A DNA stretch of 59,376 nucleotides from assembly GCA_964609455.1 (NCBI GenBank), contig CAZSRD010000002.1, positions 13,402-72,777 on the forward strand, given 5' to 3'. Positions within the stretch are counted from its first letter, which is position 1. Each line of letters starts with the position of its first letter. The notes beneath the pieces are model-generated. The model had not been told where the DNA came from and did not search any database. It saw only the letters and a program-made list of their open reading frames with translations. Shown piece by piece: positions 2,810-45,263 of the stretch. The DNA comes from an uncultured Methanosarcinales archaeon. Lineage in GTDB: Archaea > Nanobdellota > Nanobdellia > Woesearchaeales > JACPBV01. The position numbers and the translations under genes are program-made.

Positions 2810-3589
2810 ATGTTAGTGCAAAAAGACTTTTTAAATAAACTAAGGGATTTTGGTTTGAATACTTATGAAAGCAAGATATGGACTGCTTTGCTAAGCAGAG
2901 GAGTTTCTACAGCAGGGGAATTAAGTGATATTGCTAATGTTCCTAGAAGCAGAAGTTATGATGTTCTGGAAAGCCTTGAGAAAAAAGGATTTATAATTGT
3001 TAAGCCAGGAAAGCCAATCAAATATATCGCAGTAAAGCCAGAAGAGGTAATTGAAAGAGTTAAAAATAAGGTAAAAGACGAAACAGACCAAAAACTTAAG
3101 CTTATAGAAAGTCTTAAATCAACAAAAATCCTTGACGAACTCAATTCATTGCACACCCAAGGCCTAGATTTAGTAGAGCCAACAGATTTAACAGGCGCTA
3201 TAAAGGGAAGAAAAAACATATACAACCACTTAGCAACTATGATAAAAAATGCTAAAAAAACAATCACCATAGCAACAAGCTCCCAAGGAATAATAAGATA
3301 CCAGGATATATTATTGGGGCATTTGACAAAAGCAAAACAAAAAGGAGTTAAGATAAAAATTGTAGCGCCTATACAAAACCAAAAAGATATAAAAGAATTA
3401 TCTAAAATTGCAGAGGTCAAAAATACAAGCCTTAAAGCAAGGTTTTGCATAATTGACAAAAAAGAAATATTATTCATGCTTATGGATGACGAAAAAGTTC
3501 ACCCCAGCTATGATATTTCAATTTGGGCAAATACTGAATTTTTTTCAAACGTTCTTGAAAGCGCATTTGACAGCTATTTAATCAAATAG
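2810..3589 (+). CDS. TrmB-family transcriptional regulator (paralog 1)
   Basis: N-terminal wHTH: LGLNTYESKIWTALLSRGVSTAGELSDIANVPRSRSYDVLESLEKKGF. C-terminal TrmB-type effector domain. AGGGTGA SD lies before the ATG. Confidence 0.85.
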   Translation: MLVQKDFLNKLRDFGLNTYESKIWTALLSRGVSTAGELSDIANVPRSRSYDVLESLEKKGFIIVKPGKPIKYIAVKPEEVIERVKNKVKDETDQKLKLIESLKSTKILDELNSLHTQGLDLVEPTDLTGAIKGRKNIYNHLATMIKNAKKTITIATSSQGIIRYQDILLGHLTKAKQKGVKIKIVAPIQNQKDIKELSKIAEVKNTSLKARFCIIDKKEILFMLMDDEKVHPSYDISIWANTEFFSNVLESAFDSYLIK

Positions 3590-3872: not shown

Positions 3873-4259
3873 TCAAGCAATCAGCTCTTCAAATAATACT
3901 CCTTTTCTTTCTGCTTTTTCTACATTTATCATAAAGTTCTTGGCAGTTTCCTCTAAGTCATCCAAAGTTAAAAATAACCATTCTTTTTTATTAAATCTAA
4001 CTGCCAAATAAGGCTCAGCATTAAACATCTCTGCAAAAGTCCTTAATTGTTCAACATCCTCTTTCTCAATATACTTCCAGGGGTCTTTGGCAGTTTTACA
4101 CTCTATAGCCAATCTTCTCAGCTTATTAGTCGCCAAAATATCAGCAGAAGGATACCTCATAGAGCCAGAACCAGCTACTCTAAGGCTTGCCCATCCGCTG
4201 CCCCAGAACTTGTGTATCAAATCACGTTCAGCATTTATTCCTTTACTTTTTCGGCTCAT
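3873..4259 (-). CDS. hjc: Holliday junction resolvase Hjc
   Basis: KGINAERDLIHKFWGSGWASLRVAGSG ... DILATNKLRRLAIECKT (archaeal Hjc PD-(D/E)xK pattern), 128 aa. Confidence 0.85.
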   Translation of the reverse strand: MSRKSKGINAERDLIHKFWGSGWASLRVAGSGSMRYPSADILATNKLRRLAIECKTAKDPWKYIEKEDVEQLRTFAEMFNAEPYLAVRFNKKEWLFLTLDDLEETAKNFMINVEKAERKGVLFEELIA

Positions 4260-4302: not shown

Positions 4303-5193
4303 TTATAATTTAAACACCATAAAATCTTTAGCAGCTATCGAATTGTTAAATACATCCTTTGCGTCTTCTTCAACTTCTTCTGTAGTTTTATACCTGGCAG
4401 AAAAATGTGTTAATACTAATTTTTTAGCATTAGCCTGATTAGCGATCAAACCAGCCTGTTTACCAGTCATATGGCCATACTCTTCACCCTTTTCTTCTAA
4501 CTTAGAGCTATAAGTAGCTTCACAAATCAGCAAATCAGCATCTTCCGCCAATTTTACAGCATTTTTGCAAGGTACAGTATCTGCTATTACTGCAATTTTT
4601 TTACCATTTTCAACATAAGTTAAATCACTGGCATTTATTTTCTTGCCTTCAAAGCTAATTGATTCATTGTTTTGCAATTTTCCCAACAAAGGCCCATTAG
4701 GAATGCCAATCTTTTTTACCTTTTTAATATCAACATGTCTAATATCATTTTCAACAAAACTATAGCCTAAAGTTACAATTCCATGCTCTAAGGTTATTGC
4801 TTCCAAATAAAAATCTTTATTCTCAAAAAACTTGCCAGTGCTTATTTCTTTAACCTCAAATTTTACCTTCCTATCAAAAATAAAAGCCTTAAACATGCTC
4901 TCAATATGGTTCTTTGTCCCTTTTGGCCCATATATCTCCAAGGTCTTGCTATACTCCTGTGAACCCAATGTAGACATCACCCCAGGCAAGCCAAAAACAT
5001 GGTCTCCATGCCAATGAGTGATCAATATTTTAGTAATCTTTGTCAAAGGGATGCCTTTCTGCTTAAACTGCCTTTGGGTGCCTTCCCCGCAGTCTACTAA
5101 AATACCTTCATTCTTATATTTAATAAAAAGTGCTGACTGGTTTCTTTCTTTTGTCGGCACCATAGAAGAAGTGCCCAAAAATGTTATTTCCAT
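4303..5193 (-). CDS. rnz: Ribonuclease Z (tRNA 3' endonuclease)
   Basis: MEITFLGTSSMVPTKERNQSALFIKY...VDCGEGTQRQ...ITHWHGDHVFGLPG (metallo-beta-lactamase HxHxDH), 296 aa. Confidence 0.9.
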   Translation of the reverse strand: MEITFLGTSSMVPTKERNQSALFIKYKNEGILVDCGEGTQRQFKQKGIPLTKITKILITHWHGDHVFGLPGVMSTLGSQEYSKTLEIYGPKGTKNHIESMFKAFIFDRKVKFEVKEISTGKFFENKDFYLEAITLEHGIVTLGYSFVENDIRHVDIKKVKKIGIPNGPLLGKLQNNESISFEGKKINASDLTYVENGKKIAVIADTVPCKNAVKLAEDADLLICEATYSSKLEEKGEEYGHMTGKQAGLIANQANAKKLVLTHFSARYKTTEEVEEDAKDVFNNSIAAKDFMVFKL

Positions 5194-5257
5194 TTTATCT
5201 TGCTGGAATATAACTCCCTATTTAAATTTAGCGAAAAAAACAAAGTTTTTTAAATAT

Positions 5258-5854
5258 ATGGGCAACAATAAGGATAATATGTCCAAAAAGAAAAAACAAG
5301 AAACTCAGGAAGAACCAGAGCAAAAAAAACAAGTAGTACAATCAATATTCTCAGAAGAGCGAGTTATAACAGAAAACTCAGATGAAGCAAGAGATTTATT
5401 TAACCAAAGCAGATATGGCACAATATTAGAAAATGGAAAGGTGCAACTTTCTCTGTTAGAATCACTTTATTTATTAGAAAAGGGAAGATTAACAATACTA
5501 GATGGAAGGAATAAAAAAATAGACTTCGAAAAATTCTTAAAAAAGGCAAAAAGATTAGAGCCAAATTTTTGGATAAGATACTGTGTTTTTAAGGATATTC
5601 GTAACAGGGGTTATATAATCAAAACAGCATTAAAGTTTGGAGCAGATTTTAGGGTATATGAAAGGGGCGTAAAGCCAGGAGAAGATCATGCAAAATGGAT
5701 AGTATACCCAGTTCATGAAAGCTCTACCTTAACATGGTACGAATTCTCAGCGAAAAACAGGGTTGCACACTCAACCAGAAAAAAGCTTCTTGTAGGCTGC
5801 GTTGATGAAGAATCAGATGTAACTTACTGGGAAATCAAATGGGTAAGGCCTTAG
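5258..5854 (+). CDS. endA: tRNA-splicing (intron) endonuclease EndA
   Basis: C-terminal catalytic domain GYIIKTALKFGADFRVYERG...HAKWIVYPV. The track ORF (5018) overlaps rnz. In-frame ATGs at 5258 and 5279 each lie about 27-33 nt downstream of a TATA-like element. Confidence 0.8.
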   Translation: MGNNKDNMSKKKKQETQEEPEQKKQVVQSIFSEERVITENSDEARDLFNQSRYGTILENGKVQLSLLESLYLLEKGRLTILDGRNKKIDFEKFLKKAKRLEPNFWIRYCVFKDIRNRGYIIKTALKFGADFRVYERGVKPGEDHAKWIVYPVHESSTLTWYEFSAKNRVAHSTRKKLLVGCVDEESDVTYWEIKWVRP

Positions 5855-5916
5855 TCTCCATCTAGAAACAAAAATTCATAATAAACTATATATACTTCTC
5901 TAAATTATTGATAATT

Positions 5917-6771
5917 ATGGAAGACAATAGGGAAAAAATTCTTCAATACATAAGAGAAAAAGGCCCAGTTTTACCTGTTGACATAGCAAAACAAATAAAT
6001 TCAAACATCTTAATGGCCTCAGCCCATTTATCAGAATTGTCTTCTAATTCAAAATTGAAGATATCTAACATAAAAATTGGTGGTGGCTCCCCCCTTTACT
6101 ACCTTCCAGGCCAAGAAGCCCAACTACAAAAGTTTGCAGATAACCTGAACGAAAAAGAAAAACGAGCATACGACTTATTATATCAAAAAAAGATACTAAG
6201 GGATAGCCAGCTAGAGCCGTTATATAGGGTAACTTTAAGGGCAATAAAAGACTTTGCAGTTCCTTTACAAGTAAATTATAAAGGCTCTTCAGAGATATTT
6301 TGGAGATGGTACTTGTTAACAAACAAAGAAGCAGAAGAATCAATTAGGGAAATTCTAAAAGCAACGGCAACCAAACCAGAAAATGAAATAACTGAAAAAG
6401 AACCAAAAGAGAAAATAATAGAAAAGAAAACAGAAAAAAAAATTAAAAAAGAAGTACACCAAGAAGACACATTCTCAAGCCAAATTTCAGACTATTTTAA
6501 CAAAAACAAAATAAATATCCTAAGCAAAGAGATAATAAGGAAAACAGAAATTGACTTTACCATCCAAGTTCCATCCAATGTAGGTAATCTCGATTACTAT
6601 TGCAAAACAAAAAACAAAAAGAAAATAAATGATGCAGACCTATCTTCTGCGTTTGCTCAGGGCCAGCTGAGAAAGCTCCCTGTAATATTATTGACCAACG
6701 GAGATTTGACCAAAAGAGCCAAAGAAATGTTACAAAAAGATTTTAAAGGGATGAATATTATACATATATAG
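5917..6771 (+). CDS. Hypothetical winged-helix protein with Lys/Glu linker and a possible PD-(D/E)xK-like C-terminal domain
   Basis: N-terminus ILQYIREKGPVLPVDIAKQI (wH-like). KE-rich linker. C-terminus EIDFTIQV...YYCKTKNKK...VILLTNGDLTKRAKE. ATG is at 5917 (track start 5908 is TTG). Confidence 0.4.
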   Translation: MEDNREKILQYIREKGPVLPVDIAKQINSNILMASAHLSELSSNSKLKISNIKIGGGSPLYYLPGQEAQLQKFADNLNEKEKRAYDLLYQKKILRDSQLEPLYRVTLRAIKDFAVPLQVNYKGSSEIFWRWYLLTNKEAEESIREILKATATKPENEITEKEPKEKIIEKKTEKKIKKEVHQEDTFSSQISDYFNKNKINILSKEIIRKTEIDFTIQVPSNVGNLDYYCKTKNKKKINDADLSSAFAQGQLRKLPVILLTNGDLTKRAKEMLQKDFKGMNIIHI

Positions 6772-6772
6772 A

Positions 6773-7807
6773 ATGGGAGTTGCAATAACCGAATTATTAG
6801 TGAAAAAAGAGGTTGATATTGCCACATTATCTGGTAAGACCCTAGTTGTAGATGCACCAATGTGGCTATACCAATTTCTATCATCTATAAGGCAGCCCAA
6901 CGGTTCATTATTATCAGATTCTAAAGGAAATGTTACTTCACATTTAATCGGCCTTTCTTCAAGAATCCCCAATCTTATGGAAAAAGGAATCAAACTTGCA
7001 TTTTGCTTTGATGGAAAAGTTCCAGACCTTAAAAAAGAAGAGAGAGAAAGAAGAAAAGATATGAAAATACAGGCAGAGAAAAAATACAAAGAAGCAGAAA
7101 AAAAGGAAGATTTAACAGAAATGAAAAAATATGCTTCAAGAACCACCAGGCTTACAAAAGAAATGATAGAAGAATCAAAACAACTCTTAGAAGCATTGGG
7201 AATGCCTATAATCGAAGCACCATCTGAAGCAGAAGCACAAGCATCTCACATAGTGAAAAACAACGATGCATTCGCAGTAGCATCAAACGATGCAGATTGT
7301 CTCCTTTTTGGTACACCTAAACTTATCCGAAATCTAAACCTCATAGGAAAAAGAAAAAAAGCAAGTAAGCTTGCCTACGAGGCAATAAAGCCCGAATTGG
7401 TAGATTTATCTGAAAACCTAAACCATTTAGGTATAGATATTGACCAATTAATAGCCCTTTCCATGTTAGTTGGTACAGATTATAACATAGGTGGCATTAA
7501 AGGAATAGGCCCAAAAAACGCATTAAAACTAGTAAAAAAACACAAATCAAATTTAGACTCTTTATTCAAAGAAACTAAATGGGATGAAAATTTTGATATA
7601 CCTTGGACAGAAGTCTTTTATTTAATCAAAAAAATACCCGTAACCGATAATTACAAACTTGAATGGAAAAAAGCAGATAAGGAACAAATTTTAAAAATAT
7701 TAGTAGACGAACACGATTTCTCTGAAGAGCGAGTTAGCAGTACACTAAGCAGGTTACTAAAAGAAACAGAAAACAAACAACAGAAATCCCTGGGAGATTT
7801 TTCCTAA
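6773..7807 (+). CDS. fen: Flap endonuclease 1
   Basis: MGVAITELL...LVVDAPMWLYQFLSSIRQ...GNVTSHLIGL...FDGKVPDLK...EAPSEAEAQ...GTDYN..GIKGIGPKNA. Confidence 0.92.
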   Translation: MGVAITELLVKKEVDIATLSGKTLVVDAPMWLYQFLSSIRQPNGSLLSDSKGNVTSHLIGLSSRIPNLMEKGIKLAFCFDGKVPDLKKEERERRKDMKIQAEKKYKEAEKKEDLTEMKKYASRTTRLTKEMIEESKQLLEALGMPIIEAPSEAEAQASHIVKNNDAFAVASNDADCLLFGTPKLIRNLNLIGKRKKASKLAYEAIKPELVDLSENLNHLGIDIDQLIALSMLVGTDYNIGGIKGIGPKNALKLVKKHKSNLDSLFKETKWDENFDIPWTEVFYLIKKIPVTDNYKLEWKKADKEQILKILVDEHDFSEERVSSTLSRLLKETENKQQKSLGDFS

Positions 7808-13265: not shown

Positions 13266-14339
13266 TTATACAAGTATCAGTTCTTTTCGTGTTTTTGTCA
13301 AAACAAAAACCCTATTGTCCAATATCAAAATATCGTCTTCTATCCTTATACCAAAATTCTTAAAATAAATGCCTGGCTCTATTGTCAATATCTGCCCATT
13401 TTCAAATTTATCGCTGCTTTTTTCTGTTAAGTTCGGTAATTCATGTATCTTTACTCCAATACCATGCCCAAGCCCATGTATAAAGTTTTTTGCATTACTT
13501 CCTAAACTCCTTTTTACGCTTTCGTTTAAATTTTTACATTCCTCGCCAACTTTAACATCTATAATAGCTTTTTTTTGTACTCTCAAAAGTTTGTTATAAA
13601 TCTCAGCATCATTTTTAGTTGGTTTTCCAACATAAACAGTTCTTGTGGTATCAGTGCAATAATTCTTATATCTAATCCCAAAATCAATTACACAAAAACC
13701 CCTTTTAATCTTTTCATCAGAAGTATCATGGTGAACCTCACTTGAATTTTTTCCAGAAGCAACAATAGTAGGGAAAGACAGCTCGCAGTTTCTTTTTTTT
13801 GTTTCATACTCTAAAAATGCCTTTACCTCTGCCTCAGTCTTAAATTTTTTAAAATCCTTAAAACACATCCTTAAAATTTCATCAGAGATTTTACATCCCT
13901 TTTTTATTATTTCAATTTCCTTTTTTGTTTTTATCTCCCTTAATTTGTATAGCTCTTCTCTTAAATCCATTAATCTGCTCTTTTTAAAATTCTTTTTCAA
14001 GTAGTCCTTCAACAATAATGTAAATTCTTCTTTATTAACCCCAATTTTTCTGCTTTTTACTTTACTATGCCTTACTTTTTCTTTGATAAACTCAAAAAGC
14101 CTCTTTTTCTTTGGGAGGACATAACTTTTTATCTTAAGCTTTTTAGCCTTTGCAGCTCCATCCCTGGAAACAATAAGAAATGGTTTTTTATCCTTTGGTA
14201 GGATTAATGCCCCAATACCACCATAACCAGAGAAATAAGCCATATCGCAATCAAATCTAACAAAATCTATATTACAAAAAATAGCAAAATCGATCTTCTT
14301 TTTCTTTAAAATCTCTTGAAATTCCTTTATTTTAACCAT
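13266..14339 (-). CDS. M24B Xaa-Pro aminopeptidase/prolidase
   Basis: CVIDFG..YKNYCTDTTRT, HGLGHGIGVKIHELP, LTIEPGIY, GIRIEDD. Confidence 0.88.
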   Translation of the reverse strand: MVKIKEFQEILKKKKIDFAIFCNIDFVRFDCDMAYFSGYGGIGALILPKDKKPFLIVSRDGAAKAKKLKIKSYVLPKKKRLFEFIKEKVRHSKVKSRKIGVNKEEFTLLLKDYLKKNFKKSRLMDLREELYKLREIKTKKEIEIIKKGCKISDEILRMCFKDFKKFKTEAEVKAFLEYETKKRNCELSFPTIVASGKNSSEVHHDTSDEKIKRGFCVIDFGIRYKNYCTDTTRTVYVGKPTKNDAEIYNKLLRVQKKAIIDVKVGEECKNLNESVKRSLGSNAKNFIHGLGHGIGVKIHELPNLTEKSSDKFENGQILTIEPGIYFKNFGIRIEDDILILDNRVFVLTKTRKELILV

Positions 14340-19668: not shown

Positions 19669-20526
19669 ATGATATCTGTAACAACTCTATGTTCATATAT
19701 GTACTGCCCAAGGAAGCTATTTCTTCAATACGTTCTTAAACTAACAGAGCCACCAAAGGAAGCGCTGATTAAAGGATCAATAAGGCATAAAGTATACGAA
19801 AACATAAATTTAGTAGAACAGGAGATTGTAAAAAGCATAAAAGAATTGCATACTTTGGAAGATCTGAAAGGTAAATATCACCAAAGATATAGAGAAATCC
19901 TATTAGATGTCATAAAACAGAAAAAAGAAGATCTAAAACAATTCAATATTCAGCCTCAAGACCTCTTCAAGCAAACTTGGCCTTTAATACTTGCAGAATC
20001 AGAAACAAGAGCCTCACTAATCCACAATTTTATTCTTAAAAATAATATTTTTGGAGAAGAGCTTTGGGAAAAGCTAACCCCTAAGATAGAATCAGAACTA
20101 AGGATAGAATCTAAAAATCTAGGCCTAAGAGGAATCATTGACCAAATTGAAGTATACCAAGTAGGATTTGTGCCAATCGAGCTTAAAACAGGTAAAACCC
20201 CAAAAGAAGGCGTTTGGCCCGGCCATAAAATCCAGCTAATAGCATATGCCTTATTATTAGAGGAAAAGTTCAAAACAGAGGTAAAGGAAGGTTTTGTACA
20301 CTATCTAGACTCTAAACAAAAGAGGCATATTCCCCTAAACCCATTTATGCGTCTTGAAGTCAAAGAATTAATCAAAAAAGTAAATTTCCTTCTAAACTCA
20401 GACAAAATACCAAATTTCGAAAAAAACCAGAATAAATGCATTAATTGTGGCTTAAAAGATGATTGTTATGACGAAAAAAAGCTAAAGACACTACTACAAA
20501 ATAAAAAACAAAAAGTTTATATATAA
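19669..20526 (+). CDS. Cas4-family PD-(D/E)xK exonuclease with 4-Cys cluster (stand-alone)
   Basis: N-terminal YCPRKLF Cys; IIDQIE...PIELKTGK (D..ExK); QLIAYALLLEE (QxxxY); C-terminal CINCGLKDDC (Cx2Cx5C). Confidence 0.75.
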   Translation: MISVTTLCSYMYCPRKLFLQYVLKLTEPPKEALIKGSIRHKVYENINLVEQEIVKSIKELHTLEDLKGKYHQRYREILLDVIKQKKEDLKQFNIQPQDLFKQTWPLILAESETRASLIHNFILKNNIFGEELWEKLTPKIESELRIESKNLGLRGIIDQIEVYQVGFVPIELKTGKTPKEGVWPGHKIQLIAYALLLEEKFKTEVKEGFVHYLDSKQKRHIPLNPFMRLEVKELIKKVNFLLNSDKIPNFEKNQNKCINCGLKDDCYDEKKLKTLLQNKKQKVYI

Positions 20527-20896: not shown

Positions 20897-21865
20897 ATGG
20901 CTGAAAAACAGGAGCACGCAATCTGGACTGAAAAATACAGGCCGCAAGATTTCTCAGAGATCAAAGGTCAAAAAGACATCGTAAATAGAGTAAAGGCATT
21001 TGTAGCGCAAAAAAATATGCCTCACCAGCTATACGCCGGCCCGGCAGGGGTAGGTAAATCCACCTTAGCAATAGTTGTGGCAAAAAAACTTTTTGGAGAA
21101 AGTTGGCGCCAAAACTTTATTGAATTAAACGCATCAGATGAAAGAGGCATAGATATAGTAAGGGTAAAAGTAAAGGATTTTGCAAGAACAAAAGCAATTG
21201 GCGACGTTCCTTTTAAAATAATATTCTTAGACGAATGTGATGCATTAACAAGAGAAGCGCAACAGGCATTAAGGAGGACTATGGAAAATTATACTAAGAC
21301 TTGCAGATTTTTGCTTTCGTGCAACTATTCTTCAAAAATTATTGACCCAATTCAATCAAGATGCGCAGTTTTTAGGTTCAAGCCGCTAGACGAAAAGGAC
21401 CTCCATCAGATTATTGACAGAATCACCAAAGAAGAGCACCTAAAAATATCAGAAGCAGCAAAAAAGGCTATCATTCAAGTATCAGAAGGGGACTGTAGGC
21501 GCCTGGAAAATGTAATGCAAAGCTGCACAGCAATTTCAAAAAATATTACTGAAGACCTGATATACAGTTTATCTTCAGTTGCAGAGCCAAAAGAAGTAGT
21601 AGAGATTCTAAATCTGGCTATAGATAACAAGTTTGTAGAGGCAAGAAAAAAATTATTAGATACAATGCTTAATTATGGCTTATCAGGGATAGATATAATA
21701 AAACAGATTCAAAAGCAGATATTAGACTTAGATCTAGACAACAAAACCAAAATGCTAATGGTAGAAAAATGCGGAGAAATCGAGTTTAGGTTAACAGAAG
21801 GCTCTGATGAATTTATTCAGCTAGAAACTTTGCTAGCTCAGTTCACATTGTCAAAAAAACAATAA
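20897..21865 (+). CDS. rfcS: Replication factor C small subunit
   Basis: WTEKYRP, GPAGVGKST (Walker A), IIFLDECDALT (DExD), SRC motif IDPIQSRCAVFRF. Confidence 0.92.
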   Translation: MAEKQEHAIWTEKYRPQDFSEIKGQKDIVNRVKAFVAQKNMPHQLYAGPAGVGKSTLAIVVAKKLFGESWRQNFIELNASDERGIDIVRVKVKDFARTKAIGDVPFKIIFLDECDALTREAQQALRRTMENYTKTCRFLLSCNYSSKIIDPIQSRCAVFRFKPLDEKDLHQIIDRITKEEHLKISEAAKKAIIQVSEGDCRRLENVMQSCTAISKNITEDLIYSLSSVAEPKEVVEILNLAIDNKFVEARKKLLDTMLNYGLSGIDIIKQIQKQILDLDLDNKTKMLMVEKCGEIEFRLTEGSDEFIQLETLLAQFTLSKKQ

Positions 21866-32779: not shown

Positions 32780-33583
32780 ATGATTGTGAAAGAGGAGTTT
32801 TTAAGCAAACTAAGAAGATATTTCTCGTTAAACCTCTATGAGGTTAAAATTTGGACTGCATTGCTGAGCAGAGGAGTTTCTACAGCAGGGGAATTAAGTG
32901 ATATTGCAGACGTTCCAAGAAGCAGAAGTTATGATGTTCTAGAAAGCCTTGAGAAAAAAGGATTTGTGATTATGAAGCTAGGTAAGCCAATAAAATATCT
33001 TGCCGTTCCGCCGCAGGAAGTTTTGGAAAGGGTAAAAAAGAACGTTAAAGAAGATGCAAAAGATCAAATCACAAGATTAGAAGAACTAAAAGGAACAGAA
33101 GTTATTAACGAATTAAACGCTTTGCATACTCAAGGTGTAGAGCTAGTAGAGCCAGCTGATTTATCAGGTTCTTTAAGAGGGAGGCACAACCTATACAACC
33201 ATCTAGAATTGACTATTAGAAACGCAGAAAACAACGTTACCATGATGACAACAACCCAAGGGTTCATAAGAAAAGTTGAAGGTTTAAAGCCCACATTTGA
33301 GAAGATAAAGAAACGCGGTGTTAAAATCAGAATTGCAGCGCCAATAACAAAAGAAGCAATGTCATCAGTTAAAGACCTAAAAGGTTTAGCAGAAGTTAGG
33401 CACACAGATAGCAAAGCAAGGTTCTGTATTGTTGATGGCAAAGAGCTTATTTTCATGGTATTGGACGATGCAGAAGTGCACCCAACCTACGATGTAGGCG
33501 TATGGGTAAACACACCATTCTTTGCAAAAGCATTAGACACCCTATTTGATTCAGCTTGGAAAGGCATGAAGCCAATTAAATAA
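32780..33583 (+). CDS. TrmB-family transcriptional regulator (paralog 2)
   Basis: YEVKIWTALLSRGVSTAGELSDIADVPRSRSYDVLESLEKKGF. Colinear with 2810-3589 through the C-terminal domain. GGGGGTGA SD. Confidence 0.85.
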   Translation: MIVKEEFLSKLRRYFSLNLYEVKIWTALLSRGVSTAGELSDIADVPRSRSYDVLESLEKKGFVIMKLGKPIKYLAVPPQEVLERVKKNVKEDAKDQITRLEELKGTEVINELNALHTQGVELVEPADLSGSLRGRHNLYNHLELTIRNAENNVTMMTTTQGFIRKVEGLKPTFEKIKKRGVKIRIAAPITKEAMSSVKDLKGLAEVRHTDSKARFCIVDGKELIFMVLDDAEVHPTYDVGVWVNTPFFAKALDTLFDSAWKGMKPIK

Positions 33584-41076: not shown

Positions 41077-42591
41077 ATGGATAAACTAATCCAGACATTG
41101 CACATTTATGAAAGAAAAGTGCTTAATGTATTGGATAAGGCAAATGATCTTTCTTCTATAGCAAAAGAATCTGGATTGCAGGAAATAGAGGCAATGCGTG
41201 GCTTGCAATGGTTAGAAAATAAAGGTATTGTTAAGATTTCTTCTGAATTAAAGGAAATTGTAGTTTTAGATGATAATGGAAGAAAATACCTTGAAAAAGG
41301 CCTGCCAGAAAGGAGATTCCTGCAGCATTTAAAGAAAGACACCCCAATTTCTGAAATTGTTAAGAATGCAGGTTTAGAAAAAGAAGAAGTCAATATCTGT
41401 TTGGGGGTTTTAAAAGGGAAAGCAGCAATATCGATTAAGAAAGATAAGGAAATGATAATCTCTCCCTTACCTCAAGCTTCTAAATTATTGGAAAAAGAGT
41501 CATTAGAAGAGCAGTTTCTCAAGAAAAGTTTCCCACTAGGCTTATCATCTTTAAGAGATGAAGAGAAGTTTGCTCTGGAAAATTTAAAGAGGAGAAAAAA
41601 CATTATCAAAGTTGAAACTAAGAAACTTAAAAACGCAGTTTTAACAGATCTAGGAAAAAAATTACTCGCTAAAGGAATATCCCTGGAAGAATCCTATGAC
41701 AGGCTAACTCCAAAAATGCTCAAAGATGGTTCTTGGCAAAAGAAAAAATTTAGAAGATATGATGTTAGGATTAATGTTCCATCAATATTTGGGGGAAAAA
41801 AACAGCATTACATGAGGTTTTTAGATGAAGTTAGGCAAAAATTCATGGCTTTAGGATTTAAGGAAATGTTTGGCCCTATAGTCGAAACAGAGTTTTGGGA
41901 TATGGATGCTTTATTCATGCCCCAATTTCATTCCGCCAGGGATATACATGGGGCTTATTATGTTAAAGAGCCAAAATACGGAAAAGTAGAGAAAGATATA
42001 CTAGAAAATGTTAAGTTAAGTCACGAAATTGGTAAGGGAACAATTAGCAAAGGGTGGAGATATAAATTTGATATTGACAAAACAAAACAACTTATTTTAA
42101 GGACCCAGGGAACAGCATTATCTGCTAGGACTTTAGCTTCTAAAGATTTACAAATACCTGGGAAGTATTTTGCAATAGCAAGATGCTTCAGGCCAGATGT
42201 TGTTGACGCAACCCACTCAGCAGACTTTAACCAGGTTGAAGGTATAATAATAGAAGAAAATCTTAATTTCAAGCACCTTAAGGGATTATTAAAAATGTTT
42301 GCAGAAGAATTTGCTCAAACAGACCAAATAAAGATTACGCCAGCTTACTTTCCGTTCACAGAACCATCTGCAGAATTACATGCAAAACATCCAGAACTAG
42401 GATGGATTGAACTAGGTGGTTCAGGTATTTTTAGGCCAGAATTAGTAAAACCTCTAGTTGGAAAAGAAATACCAGTTTTAGCATGGGGTTTGGGTATAGA
42501 CAGATTAGCAATGTTCAAATTGGGGATAAATGACATCAGGGAGTTATTCTCACACAAATTAGAATTTTTGAAGAGTAGTAAGGTAATCTAA
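41077..42591 (+). CDS. pheS: Phenylalanyl-tRNA synthetase alpha subunit
   Basis: N-terminal wH repeats. Class II core: FWDMDALFMPQFHSARD, LRTQGTA, RCFRPD, FNQVEG, PFTEPSAE, GSGIFRPE, AWGLGIDRLAM. Confidence 0.92.
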   Translation: MDKLIQTLHIYERKVLNVLDKANDLSSIAKESGLQEIEAMRGLQWLENKGIVKISSELKEIVVLDDNGRKYLEKGLPERRFLQHLKKDTPISEIVKNAGLEKEEVNICLGVLKGKAAISIKKDKEMIISPLPQASKLLEKESLEEQFLKKSFPLGLSSLRDEEKFALENLKRRKNIIKVETKKLKNAVLTDLGKKLLAKGISLEESYDRLTPKMLKDGSWQKKKFRRYDVRINVPSIFGGKKQHYMRFLDEVRQKFMALGFKEMFGPIVETEFWDMDALFMPQFHSARDIHGAYYVKEPKYGKVEKDILENVKLSHEIGKGTISKGWRYKFDIDKTKQLILRTQGTALSARTLASKDLQIPGKYFAIARCFRPDVVDATHSADFNQVEGIIIEENLNFKHLKGLLKMFAEEFAQTDQIKITPAYFPFTEPSAELHAKHPELGWIELGGSGIFRPELVKPLVGKEIPVLAWGLGIDRLAMFKLGINDIRELFSHKLEFLKSSKVI

Positions 42592-42592
42592 A

Positions 42593-44242
42593 ATGCCAAC
42601 AATAAATTTTTCACTAACAGACTTGCAGAATTTAGTAGGCAAAAAACTTTCAATAGAAGAAGTCTCTAAACTAGCTGAATATGGAAAAGGCTCTTTTGAA
42701 GCTTATAATAAGGGAGAGGACGAAGTTTCAATCGAATTTGGTGATACCAATCTTCCATATTTATGGTCAGTGGAAGGATTTGCTCGCTTAATCAAAGGTG
42801 TTTTAGGTTTACAAAAAGGAATCCCTAAATTAGAGATAAAAAAAGCAGATTATAGTATTATCGTAGACAAATCTGTATCCCTTATCAGGCCATATATTGC
42901 CGCATTTGTGGCAAAAGGCCATAAAGTAGATGATTACTTAATTAAACAGATGGTCCAATTGCAGGAAAAATTATGTGAAAGTTTTGGTAGAAGAAGGTTA
43001 AAGGTGGCAATAGGAGTTTACAGCTATGACAAAATTAAATTCCCAGTGCATTATAAAGCAACAGAACCAGAGTCAGTAAAGTTTACACCATTAGAATTCA
43101 AAAAAGAAATGACTCAGCAGGAAATTCTGGAAGAGCACCCAAAAGGAAAAGAATATGCATGGACACTAGAAGGTTGTAAGAAATATCCAATATTAGTAGA
43201 TGATGCTAATGAAGTCTTGAGTTTCCCGCCCATAATTAACTCTAATTTTACAGGTAAGGTTGCTGAAGGAGATGAACACCTTTTTATCGAAGCTACAGGA
43301 ACAGACCTCGAATCAAATCTTTTAGCCATTAATATAATGGCTCAAGCTTTTTATGAAAGGGGCTTTGAGATTTACTGCGTAGACATAAAATACCAAGGAA
43401 AAAAAATAACAACGCCTTTTATCTTTAAAGACAAAATAAAAATAACTAATCAACAAATAAAATCCCTGCTCGGATTAGATCTTAAAACTTCTCAAATTAA
43501 AGAATTACTGGAAAAAGCGCAATATAATTACTCGACTGTTGTGCAAATACCACCCTATAGAAAAGATATATTGCACCCAAACGATGTCATAGAAGACATC
43601 GGGATAATATATGGGTATGATAATATAAAAGAAGAGCCATTAACTTCCTACACAATTGGGGAAACATCTAATTTAGTAAAATTCAAAGACAAAATAAGAG
43701 AACTGATTGTTGGCTTAGGTTATCAGGAAGCAGCCTCCCCAATGTTAACAAATAAGACTATTTTATATGAAAAAATGAACACCAAAGACTTGGGCACAAT
43801 AGAGTTAACCAATTTCATGTCAGAGACCTACTCTTGTGTAAGGTCCTGGTTATTGCCTATTTTGATGGACTTTCTATCTAAAAACAAACATGTAGAATAC
43901 CCTCAAAAAGTATTTGAACAAGGTTTAGTTACAGTAAAAGAAGGTGATGATGTAATAGATTACGAGCGCATAGCAATAGTCTCAGCAAACGAAAAAGCAG
44001 ACTACACAGAAATAAGGCAGGTTCTTGATTATATGGCCAGGATGTTAGGAATTGAATATTCAATAGAGGAAACAGACCATGATTCATTCATACCCGGAAG
44101 AGTGGGGAGAGTAATCGTAAACAATAAAAAAGTAGCTTATATTGGAGAAATCTCGCCAATAGTCTTGGGAAATCACAGTTTAGAAATTCCGGTTGTAGGA
44201 TTAGAGCTCAATATATCTGATCTATTCCAATCTATGGTCTAA
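42593..44242 (+). CDS. pheT: Phenylalanyl-tRNA synthetase beta subunit
   Basis: MPTINFSLTDLQNLVGK, B3/4 and B5 regions (IPPYRKDILHPNDVIEDIGIIYGYDNI), archaeal size of 549 aa. Confidence 0.9.
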   Translation: MPTINFSLTDLQNLVGKKLSIEEVSKLAEYGKGSFEAYNKGEDEVSIEFGDTNLPYLWSVEGFARLIKGVLGLQKGIPKLEIKKADYSIIVDKSVSLIRPYIAAFVAKGHKVDDYLIKQMVQLQEKLCESFGRRRLKVAIGVYSYDKIKFPVHYKATEPESVKFTPLEFKKEMTQQEILEEHPKGKEYAWTLEGCKKYPILVDDANEVLSFPPIINSNFTGKVAEGDEHLFIEATGTDLESNLLAINIMAQAFYERGFEIYCVDIKYQGKKITTPFIFKDKIKITNQQIKSLLGLDLKTSQIKELLEKAQYNYSTVVQIPPYRKDILHPNDVIEDIGIIYGYDNIKEEPLTSYTIGETSNLVKFKDKIRELIVGLGYQEAASPMLTNKTILYEKMNTKDLGTIELTNFMSETYSCVRSWLLPILMDFLSKNKHVEYPQKVFEQGLVTVKEGDDVIDYERIAIVSANEKADYTEIRQVLDYMARMLGIEYSIEETDHDSFIPGRVGRVIVNNKKVAYIGEISPIVLGNHSLEIPVVGLELNISDLFQSMV

Positions 44243-44285
44243 TTGAAGAAAGGTTTTTATATCTAGTTCTCTATTGCCGATAATA

Positions 44286-44786
44286 ATGAAAACAGTCTTC
44301 AAAAAAGGAAGATATATAAAAACAAGAGCAGGAAAAGAAGTAATCAAAATAGCAAAAAGAATATCAACTTCTTTAAAGCCATTAGCTTATCAACAAGAAA
44401 TTGTTGGATCCATAAGAAGAAAATCTCCTTACCCAATAGATATTGATATTGTTGTAATGCCAAAATCCAAGCATAAAATAATTGAATACCTTTCAAAGAA
44501 GGGAAAATATCTCCAAGGAGGGCATAAAAGAGCATCTTTCAAAATAAAAGGCGTTAAAGTAGAAATCTATTTTGCAAATAGAAAAAGTTGGGGGGCTCAT
44601 CTATTGACCTACACAGGACCATTTCAATACAACATAGGTTTAAGGATGAAAGCAAAAAGAAATGGCTTATTGCTCAACCAATATGGCCTGTTCAAAAACA
44701 AAAAGCAGATAGCAGGCTCAACAGAACTATCGATCTATAAATCCTTAGGAAAACACTACAAAGAGCCTGAACTAAGAGGAAAATAA
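44286..44786 (+). CDS. Minimal family X DNA polymerase (palm + thumb only)
   Basis: IVGSIRRKSPYPIDIDIVV (GSxRR..DxD nucleotidyltransferase motif), LLTYTGPFQYNIGLRMKAKRNGLLLNQYGLF, C-terminal YKSLGKHYKEPELR. Only 166 aa, with no 8-kDa or fingers/HhH region. TATA is centred about 27 nt upstream of the ATG at 44286. Confidence 0.75.
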   Translation: MKTVFKKGRYIKTRAGKEVIKIAKRISTSLKPLAYQQEIVGSIRRKSPYPIDIDIVVMPKSKHKIIEYLSKKGKYLQGGHKRASFKIKGVKVEIYFANRKSWGAHLLTYTGPFQYNIGLRMKAKRNGLLLNQYGLFKNKKQIAGSTELSIYKSLGKHYKEPELRGK

Positions 44787-44789
44787 AAA

Positions 44790-45263
44790 TTATTTTTCAG
44801 CTTCTTTTTTAGCTGGCTTCTCTTTCTTAATTTTCTCTGGTTTTGCTTCTTTCTTCACTACAGCCGCTTCCTTAACTCCTTCATCTTCTTTTTCTTCCTT
44901 AGCAACCTTTTTCTTGGCTGGCTTCTCTTTTTTTGTTTCTTTCTTCTTCCCTTTCTTTATCTCTTCTTCAACAGCCTTCTTCTTGCCCCTAACTTTTCGA
45001 GGTCTCTCTGTTTTTTCCTTTTTCTTTGTATCCCAAACTTCAATCTTTAATTTCTCAAACTCTTTCTTAACATCTTCATGAGAAGCTCCTTTCTTAATCT
45101 CGATCTTCTTATCAGTAGGCTCTAAATGCAATATATTGCACTTACGCCTTCTAACATTACCATCTATTAAAACATAATTCCCATCAAGAATATCTACTAT
45201 GATCGCTTCACGCCCTGCGTCACGACCTGCTAATTTTATTACAATTCTCCCAATTTCAATCAT
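44790..45263 (-). CDS. rpl14e: Ribosomal protein eL14 (L14e) with a ~60-aa Lys/Glu-rich C-terminal tail
   Basis: MIEIGRIVIKLAGRDAGREAIIVDILDGNYVLIDG (KOW), then KKEKTERPRKVRGKKKAVEEEIKKGKKKE... Confidence 0.85.
   Translation of the reverse strand: MIEIGRIVIKLAGRDAGREAIIVDILDGNYVLIDGNVRRRKCNILHLEPTDKKIEIKKGASHEDVKKEFEKLKIEVWDTKKKEKTERPRKVRGKKKAVEEEIKKGKKKETKKEKPAKKKVAKEEKEDEGVKEAAVVKKEAKPEKIKKEKPAKKEAEK

Follow-up and report, generated by a model that had tools for sequence, protein, structure and literature searches.

Can 166 residues make up a working DNA polymerase in a cell? The question is raised by a short open reading frame (ORF) in 59,376 nucleotides of archaeal DNA (contig CAZSRD010000002.1, positions 13,402 to 72,777 of the forward strand; GTDB lineage Woesearchaeales), the whole of which we call the window. 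A preliminary description had assigned this ORF to the family X DNA polymerases (Pol X), with only a palm and a thumb retained. We name the protein mini-PolX, and consider it likely that it is an active, template-directed, distributive gap-filling polymerase of that family, reduced to palm plus thumb. We infer this activity, its substrate and its pathway because the two-metal site is intact, the GSIRR motif and a template-contact arginine are invariant, selection on the gene is strong, some relatives are fused to DNA ligases, and the Pol X of African swine fever virus (ASFV) provides a precedent.

A Pol X palm and thumb in 166 residues

The ORF is intact both in the ORF list and in the sequence, and extends from an ATG at 44286 to a TAA at 44784-44786; an alternative in-frame TTG upstream, at 44274, would yield a product of 170 residues. 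The coding sequence and its parts are as follows (dN/dS, ratio of nonsynonymous to synonymous substitution rates):

44286..44786, plus strand: mini-PolX coding sequence, 166 residues plus stop; based on the ORF list, the sequence, Pol X homology, and a dN/dS of 0.06-0.12 against relatives
44289..44324, plus strand: N-terminal basic β-hairpin, residues 2-13, KTVFKKGRYIKT; strands 2-6 and 9-13 in the structural model
44331..44600, plus strand: palm (Pol beta-like nucleotidyltransferase), residues ~16-105; aligned to Thermus PolX 162-260, with a weak Pfam palm match and a fold match
44601..44777, plus strand: thumb (Pfam DNA_pol_B_thumb), residues 106-164; includes YTGP, R120, LNQYGLF and YKEPELR
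44406..44420, plus strand: GSIRR triphosphate-binding motif, residues 41-45, equivalent to Pol beta G179-R183; invariant in both family alignments
44439..44447, plus strand: catalytic D52-I-D54, equivalent to Pol beta D190/D192 and ASFV D49/D51; invariant; aligned to ASFV Pol X, Thermus PolX and Pol beta
44562..44564, plus strand: third catalytic carboxylate, E93, equivalent to Pol beta D256 and ASFV D100; Glu replaces Asp
44643..44645, plus strand: R120, equivalent to Pol beta R283 and ASFV R127; template and minor-groove contact

The protein is a genuine Pol X palm plus thumb. Its C-terminal part, residues 106-164, matches the Pfam thumb model (PF14791) at 1.7e-14 (53.9 bits against a cut-off of 25), while the Pfam palm model taken alone remains below threshold (14.9 bits against a cut-off of 25). 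'Thumb' is here the Pfam name of the C-terminal subdomain, which the ASFV structural paper (PMC5330486) calls 'finger'. Every motif singled out in the preliminary description is present: GSIRRKSPYPIDIDIVV (residues 41-57), YTGPFQYNIGLRMKAKRNGLLLNQYGLF (residues 109-136) and YKEPELR (residues 158-164). In a phmmer search of solved structures, the best match is Thermus PolX (3.3e-14 over residues 163-314, 31% identity); ASFV Pol X is matched over its full length at ~4e-8, and its aligned chains do contain the LNQYGLFKN previously attributed to its thumb. A profile built from 72 family members finds Thermus PolX at 1.9e-24 (89.7 bits), ASFV Pol X at 2.7e-18, and the eukaryotic enzymes Pol beta, lambda, mu and TdT at 24-42 bits.

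An AlphaFold2 model built on the same 72-sequence alignment was of high confidence (predicted local distance difference test, pLDDT, 92.8; predicted template-modelling score, pTM, 0.87). It superposes on the ternary complexes of Thermus PolX with a template-modelling (TM) score of 0.84-0.85 and a root-mean-square deviation of 1.8-2.0 Å; in the structure search, these are followed by hundreds of Pol beta, lambda and mu structures, and the best matches in a viral structure library are Pol X proteins of giant viruses and phages. Residues G41-S42, D52, D54 and E93 align with the catalytic residues of Pol beta, Thermus PolX and ASFV Pol X, the third being Glu.

With just 18 residues ahead of the palm and two after the thumb, the 166-residue protein has no 8-kDa deoxyribose phosphate (dRP)-lyase domain, no fingers or helix-hairpin-helix (HhH) domain, and no C-terminal PHP nuclease domain. 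The match to the NCBIfam PolX equivalog (PRK08609) is consistent with this: it covers profile positions 157-314 of 571 only, that is, palm plus thumb (31.6 bits against a cut-off of 426), so that the 8-kDa, fingers and PHP domains of canonical bacterial and archaeal PolX are not represented. The domain losses reported in the preliminary description are thus borne out by both the length of the protein and the range of this match.

How close, then, is the resemblance to the ASFV enzyme (O174L, 174 residues; PDB: 1JAJ and 5HRB, among others)? Like mini-PolX, ASFV Pol X is a stand-alone palm and thumb with no 8-kDa, fingers/HhH, PHP or exonuclease domain; the two align over their full lengths, and they share GSxRR, DxD, R127/R120, LNQYGLFKN and a C-terminal P-x-x-R. 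The ASFV protein differs in being viral, in having Asp100 where mini-PolX has Glu93, and in lacking the basic N-terminal hairpin. The comparison with ASFV Pol X made in the preliminary description therefore holds for the palm-and-thumb-only architecture, although the protein itself is closer to the core of the bacterial and archaeal PolX. The best palm and thumb match in both sequence and structure is that of Thermus thermophilus (PDB: 3AU2, 3AUO), in which the motifs occur in the same order and the helix N residues are the same; it differs in its length (575 residues), its 8-kDa, fingers and PHP domains, its DDD triad, and the Tyr at its Tyr271 position.

Another feature of the protein is the conserved N-terminal hairpin, in which K6 is invariant in the family and conservation reaches 90% or more at K7, G8 and T13. 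Alignments to Thermus and ASFV Pol X do not extend to the hairpin, which viral relatives lack. It is probably an extra DNA-binding element, and would supply contacts that the missing domains give elsewhere.

Glutamate as the third catalytic carboxylate

We assessed residue conservation in alignments of 72 and 120 sequences, and counted cellular loci among 79. The preliminary description had overlooked that the third catalytic residue is Glu and not Asp. Position 93 is always acidic in the family (E 96%, D 4%), and the triad reads DDE in 72 of 79 cellular loci. The catalytic Glu is encoded by GAA in some members and by GAG in others, a synonymous change, and Ser42 is retained with codons from both serine families (TCN and AGY).

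The residues expected to contact nucleotide and template are also in place: GSIRR, a Y-T-G-P motif, N116 and R120. The last of these is invariant in the family (79/79 cellular loci); N116 aligns with Pol beta N279, and is more variable (N 37%, S 35%, G 19%). Position 108 is small rather than aromatic: it is A, T or S in the family (T108 here), as against Tyr in Pol beta (Tyr271) and Thermus PolX and His in ASFV Pol X. The His115-Arg127 platform of the ASFV enzyme, which has been linked to dG:dGTP misinsertion, is consequently incomplete, with T108 in place of the His and the Arg kept as R120.

Lys91 (K 79%) occupies the position of Pol beta R254, a residue that in the human enzyme positions D256 (PMC5499815). 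In the wider family, K or R at position 91 accompanies Glu93 in 80 of 120 sequences against 41 of 144 Asp forms, and a small residue at position 108 accompanies it in 90 of 120 against 33 of 144, counts that are not phylogeny-corrected. As judged from these alignments, K/R91 and the small residue at 108 are clade signatures that go with Glu93. We suggest that K91 and E93 together form an adapted active site, and that the small residue at 108 possibly relaxes sugar selection.

A lineage-wide cellular gene under purifying selection

We obtained 242 homologues from a search of 5.8 billion proteins; the best 120 of these are mostly 166-172 residues long and, if named at source, are entered as 'DNA polymerase (family X/10)' or as hypothetical proteins from Nanoarchaeia or Nanoarchaeota. 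The gene is present in at least 118 species-representative genomes, nearly all of them labelled Nanoarchaeota, Woesearchaeota, Pacearchaeota or Nanoarchaeia, and one of them Iainarchaeum. Orthologues in these genomes are 150-190 residues long, and among cellular loci 71 of 73 complete ORFs encode at most 200 residues. With the low dN/dS given above, mini-PolX is under purifying selection.

Another of these loci (L032:4001-4489) belongs to a genome labelled Candidatus Dojkabacteria, a candidate phyla radiation (CPR) bacterium; it encodes an archaeal-type mini-PolX of 49% identity in the YchF-miniPolX arrangement of the archaea, and the contig is probably a mis-binned archaeal one rather than the site of a bacterial gene.

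ASFV Pol X was still being called the smallest known DNA polymerase, with a unique architecture, in 2026 (PMC13252658), and it was the only well-known example named in the preliminary description. The implied rarity does not stand: Nanoarchaeota and uncultivated viruses commonly have the palm-and-thumb design. A 2022 survey of prokaryotic PolX in RefSeq assigned 288 of its 296 archaeal sequences to Euryarchaeota (PMC9226535), and a 2026 bacterial survey described PolX1 and PolX2 and no palm-and-thumb-only form. We found no description of PolX in DPANN, Nanoarchaeota or Woesearchaeota in the freely available literature that we searched. The fold assignment in itself is not new, some database entries being already auto-labelled 'DNA polymerase (family X)'; the novelty lies in a minimal Pol X that is cellular, spans a lineage, and has a DDE site and an additional hairpin.

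The palm-and-thumb-only design is a stable and selected chromosomal feature of a whole archaeal lineage. The natural Asp-to-Glu variant with its accompanying Lys offers a ready test of how far a Pol X site tolerates a change that cripples Pol beta, and the enzyme would give a handle on DNA repair in the genome-reduced DPANN archaea. It is also a very small scaffold for polymerase engineering.

Viral and ligase-fused relatives

Of 1.84 billion representative proteins searched by profile, 10,698 matched at E ≤ 1e-3 and 143 at E ≤ 1e-30; among the top 150 matches the triads are DDD (97), DDE (33), DDN (12) and DDQ (5). In eight relatives (P0151, P0141, P0127, P0134, P0140, P0155, P0185 and P0218), mini-PolX is joined to an ATP-dependent DNA ligase within one protein. 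The ligase usually lies N-terminal to mini-PolX, the order being reversed in P0218, and the P0185 fusion additionally bears a GIY-YIG nuclease domain. Such fusions imply that gap filling would be followed by sealing, a logic also seen in PgVPolX of Phaeocystis globosa virus and in bacterial LigD, which likewise combine polymerase and ligase to fill and seal. PgVPolX differs in having a full Pol beta-like core at the N-terminus and the ligase at the C-terminus (PMC5537341), whereas the fusions here mostly have the opposite order; the protein in the window is unfused.

Two ligase fusions (proteins P0151 and P0141) are located at L092:2470-4128 and L093:8001-10439, on contigs of tightly packed, co-directional and mostly unannotated ORFs that include phage-type helicase/exonuclease genes and homing endonuclease genes. 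A third contig, a 117-kb JGI contig (L007), encodes at 6001-6555 a 184-residue member (P0114) with an FKKGK hairpin and a DDD triad. It is one of a series of unannotated ORFs on one strand; DUF5661, which occurs in this series, is also encoded near the ligase-PolX fusion of L093, and L007 possibly represents a Nanoarchaeota virus or mobile element. There was no capsid or terminase match among the ORFs tested on L007, L092 and L093, and the gene content of these contigs is only suggestive of a viral origin.

In IMG/VR, 205 contigs contain stand-alone mini-PolX relatives of 27-43% identity. Among the best 80 of them (L094-L173), 67 of 78 complete ORFs encode at most 200 residues, mostly 145-200; the triad is mostly DDD, and also DDE, DED or DDN, and R120, which is R, C or A in viral relatives, often gives way to C or A. 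The minimal architecture is therefore widespread and no oddity of ASFV. Closest to ASFV Pol X in our collection are L150:5001-5420 (167 residues, 36% identity, 95 bits) and the loci L130 and L158 from giant-virus metagenome-assembled genomes. Against the archaeal clade, ASFV Pol X scores up to 60.7 bits with species-representative loci and 65 bits with the metagenomic member P0040, compared with 30.5 bits for the core of Thermus PolX and 14.5 bits for a Pol beta sequence entered by hand. By these similarity scores, which are not a phylogeny, the mini forms are more alike one another than they are like full-length PolX. A special sister relationship between ASFV and archaea is unsupported as stated, since ASFV Pol X is nearer the viral mini-PolX. 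We also noted five longer proteins (P0223, P0228, P0236, P0244 and P0251; 600-945 residues) in which a palm and thumb module with a DDD triad lies close to the N-terminus (approximately residues 62-220), after which 400-700 residues are without a Pfam match.

Proposed gap filling and its alternatives

We propose that mini-PolX would bind a short gap left by removal of a base or nucleotide, or one at a processed break. GSIRR and the thumb helix (N116, R120) would position the incoming nucleotide, and D52, D54 and E93 would carry out two-metal nucleotidyl transfer; a separate ATP-dependent DNA ligase would then seal the resulting nick. Since mini-PolX has neither an 8-kDa dRP-lyase nor a PHP nuclease, 5'-dRP removal and 3'-end cleaning would fall to other enzymes in trans, namely an apurinic/apyrimidinic (AP) lyase or endonuclease, and FEN1. 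There is precedent for so small an enzyme: ASFV Pol X is an active gap-filling polymerase of base excision repair whose partners are the viral AP endonuclease and ligase (PMC5330486, PMC13252658), and a truncated Faustovirus PolX, consisting of palm and thumb only, still catalyzes synthesis (PMC13252658).

Several observations weigh against this proposal. An engineered D256E substitution in human Pol beta lowers activity ~1000-fold (PMC5499815), and because of that loss of some three orders of magnitude the natural Glu93 could make for a slow or altered enzyme. The ASFV-specific pocket for the 5'-phosphate (R125/T166/R168) is not conserved, its positions being taken by G118 (99% G), H157 (variable) and K159 (94% K); neither this pocket nor His115 is common to mini-PolX, and here the ASFV analogy of the preliminary description gives out. 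The link to ligase consists of fusions in distant, mostly DDD, virus-like relatives, and a corresponding operonic link in cellular genomes was rejected, in that a DNA ligase gene is adjacent in only one of 84 loci (L039). Finally, no archaeal PolX has been characterized (PMC9226535).

Could mini-PolX instead be a Pol X remnant, attenuated or inactive, that serves structural or recruiting purposes (bringing in a ligase, for instance) by binding nucleotides or DNA with gaps or nicks? We think this improbable. It would account for the Glu in third place, given the fate of the Pol beta mutant (PMC5499815), and it has parallels: ~27% of prokaryotic PolX have inactivated polymerase sites (PMC9226535), some relatives of mini-PolX have DDN or DDQ triads, and the polymerase-dead PolX of Deinococcus radiodurans (AEE triad) also departs from DDD and has Glu at a catalytic position. 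Noncanonical PolX, however, lose acidic residues and deoxynucleotide (dNTP)-binding motifs, have deletions in palm or fingers, and keep a functional PHP domain, whereas in mini-PolX all three metal-ligand positions are acidic, GSIRR and R120 are invariant, only Asp alternates with Glu at position 93, and there is no nuclease domain that might be the 'real' function. The pairing of Glu93 with a basic residue where Pol beta has R254, though not phylogeny-corrected, also suggests an adapted site rather than a decayed one.

An enzyme that inserts ribonucleotides (rNTPs), or that extends ends without a template at breaks in the manner of Pol mu or TdT, is likewise improbable. Its appeal comes from position 108, at which a small residue (A/T/S) is followed by an aromatic one, recalling the Gly-Trp pair of Pol mu and TdT, whose glycine underlies poor sugar discrimination. 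Engineered Faustovirus PolX fragments that retain only palm and thumb also perform untemplated synthesis (PMC13252658). On the other hand, the template-contact residue R120 is invariant and N116 aligns with N279; in the model, moreover, a tight turn is predicted to join strands 82-87 and 90-96 with no Loop1 of the TdT/Pol mu type, and the closest solved structure is that of the template-dependent Thermus PolX.

Two further explanations we regard as practically excluded. A fragment or pseudogene of a longer polX comes to mind because typical bacterial and archaeal PolX have ~570 residues with 8-kDa, fingers and PHP domains, and a disrupted gene was a concern of the preliminary description, but the length is constant (modally 166-172 residues in 120 homologues, and much the same in more than 100 species), the intact and unrelated pheT and L14e genes flank the ORF directly without PolX-like remnants, and selection is purifying. 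A minimal MNT/KNT-type nucleotidyltransferase of toxin-antitoxin or resistance systems, or an anti-phage defence component, would also be a small stand-alone Pol beta fold, and there are weak, sub-threshold Pfam matches to DUF6932 and L544 NTase; against this, the thumb match exceeds the Pfam cut-off, every one of the best matches is a Pol X polymerase whose thumb is clearly homologous, not a thumbless MNT/KNT protein, the Pfam scan of the query gave no match to PF01909, PADLOC and PHROG gave no match for mini-PolX, and its neighbours are housekeeping genes with no HEPN or toxin partner beside it.

With gap filling as the preferred function, a wider synthesis can be offered, which we hold to be possible and yet doubtful. 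Mini-PolX would be an undescribed, lineage-wide cellular polymerase, smaller (166 residues) than the 174-residue ASFV Pol X, with co-adapted Lys91 and Glu93 and relaxed sugar selectivity; it would be the dedicated, perhaps the only, short-gap repair polymerase of archaea with reduced genomes; and it would derive from one ancient mini-PolX pool exchanged between DPANN archaea and large DNA viruses, the source of both ASFV-type Pol X and the ligase-PolX fusions. Mini-PolX also bears on the origin of the viral mini-PolX enzymes.

Genomic neighbourhoods

As the preliminary description had it, the gene sits between pheT and the ribosomal cluster. Upstream on the plus strand are pheS (41077-42591) and pheT (42593-44242); downstream is a convergent KOW/L14e-like gene (44790-45263, minus strand), the stop codon of which lies 3 nucleotides from that of mini-PolX, and beyond it are L34e, an EMC3-like gene, SecY and a large ribosomal protein operon. 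In the KOW/L14e-like protein, Lys and Glu are highly enriched over a C-terminal tail of ~80 residues.

The order pheT, mini-PolX, L14e is confined to relatives of ~74% identity or more, and a conserved place beside pheT and the ribosomal operon was accordingly rejected for the family as a whole. The main neighbourhood of the family comprises a YchF-like GTPase, mini-PolX, DUF167/YggU, an HExxH 'PhageMetallopep' protein (133 residues), an unannotated 118-residue protein, Kae1/TsaD and L7Ae/S28e/L24e; it is found in 50-60 of 83 loci (for example, L004, L005, L010, L031 and L039), and its YchF to DUF167-metallopeptidase-Kae1 cluster is not in the window. Given two different conserved neighbourhoods, mini-PolX resides stably in the chromosome, and it has changed its location at least once.

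The upstream region

The preliminary description had also ascribed to the gene a TATA box of its own at leaderless spacing. The element is:

44254..44262, plus strand: TATA-like box TTTTTATAT, starting ~31 nucleotides before the ATG; a Shine-Dalgarno-like element is lacking, and the box is a putative promoter for leaderless transcription

A box near -30 with no Shine-Dalgarno sequence likewise lies upstream of at least three other genes, those at 4306-5193, 13269-14339 and 20897-21862, and most of the remaining genes of the window combine a TATA-like box at about -50 to -55 with a Shine-Dalgarno-like GGAGG or AGGTGA. Gene starts in the window fall into two classes, of which the one with a box near -30 and no Shine-Dalgarno element is what leaderless transcripts would be expected to show. 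Because the pattern recurs at these other genes, and because a strict TATA-like heptamer occurs by chance in ~2.5% of random 20-nucleotide windows, a promoter of its own and a leaderless transcript are a reasonable interpretation for this genome. The pattern is lineage-specific. In relatives of 78-81% identity, the spacer is absent and the first 11-17 nucleotides of the ORF lie within the end of pheT, which suggests co-transcription with pheT; compared with them, the window has an insertion of ~36 nucleotides that carries TTTTTATAT. A conserved TATA promoter is for this reason rejected, while the pattern noted earlier remains plausible for the window itself.

Other features of the window

The window (G+C 34.8%) also encodes FEN1 (6773-7804), a Cas4/Dna2-like nuclease (19669-20523) and Hjc (3876-4259), none of which is linked to mini-PolX. 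A gap of 723 nucleotides (5194-5916), with no ORF kept in the gene map, separates divergent genes; tRNA and Rfam searches gave no match across the whole window, this gap included. Lastly, the genes at 2810-3586 and 32780-33580 form a paralogous pair that encodes proteins of ~260 residues each with near-identical N-terminal regions (...KIWTALLSRGVSTAGELSDIA.VPRSRSY); these are probably winged-helix transcription regulators.

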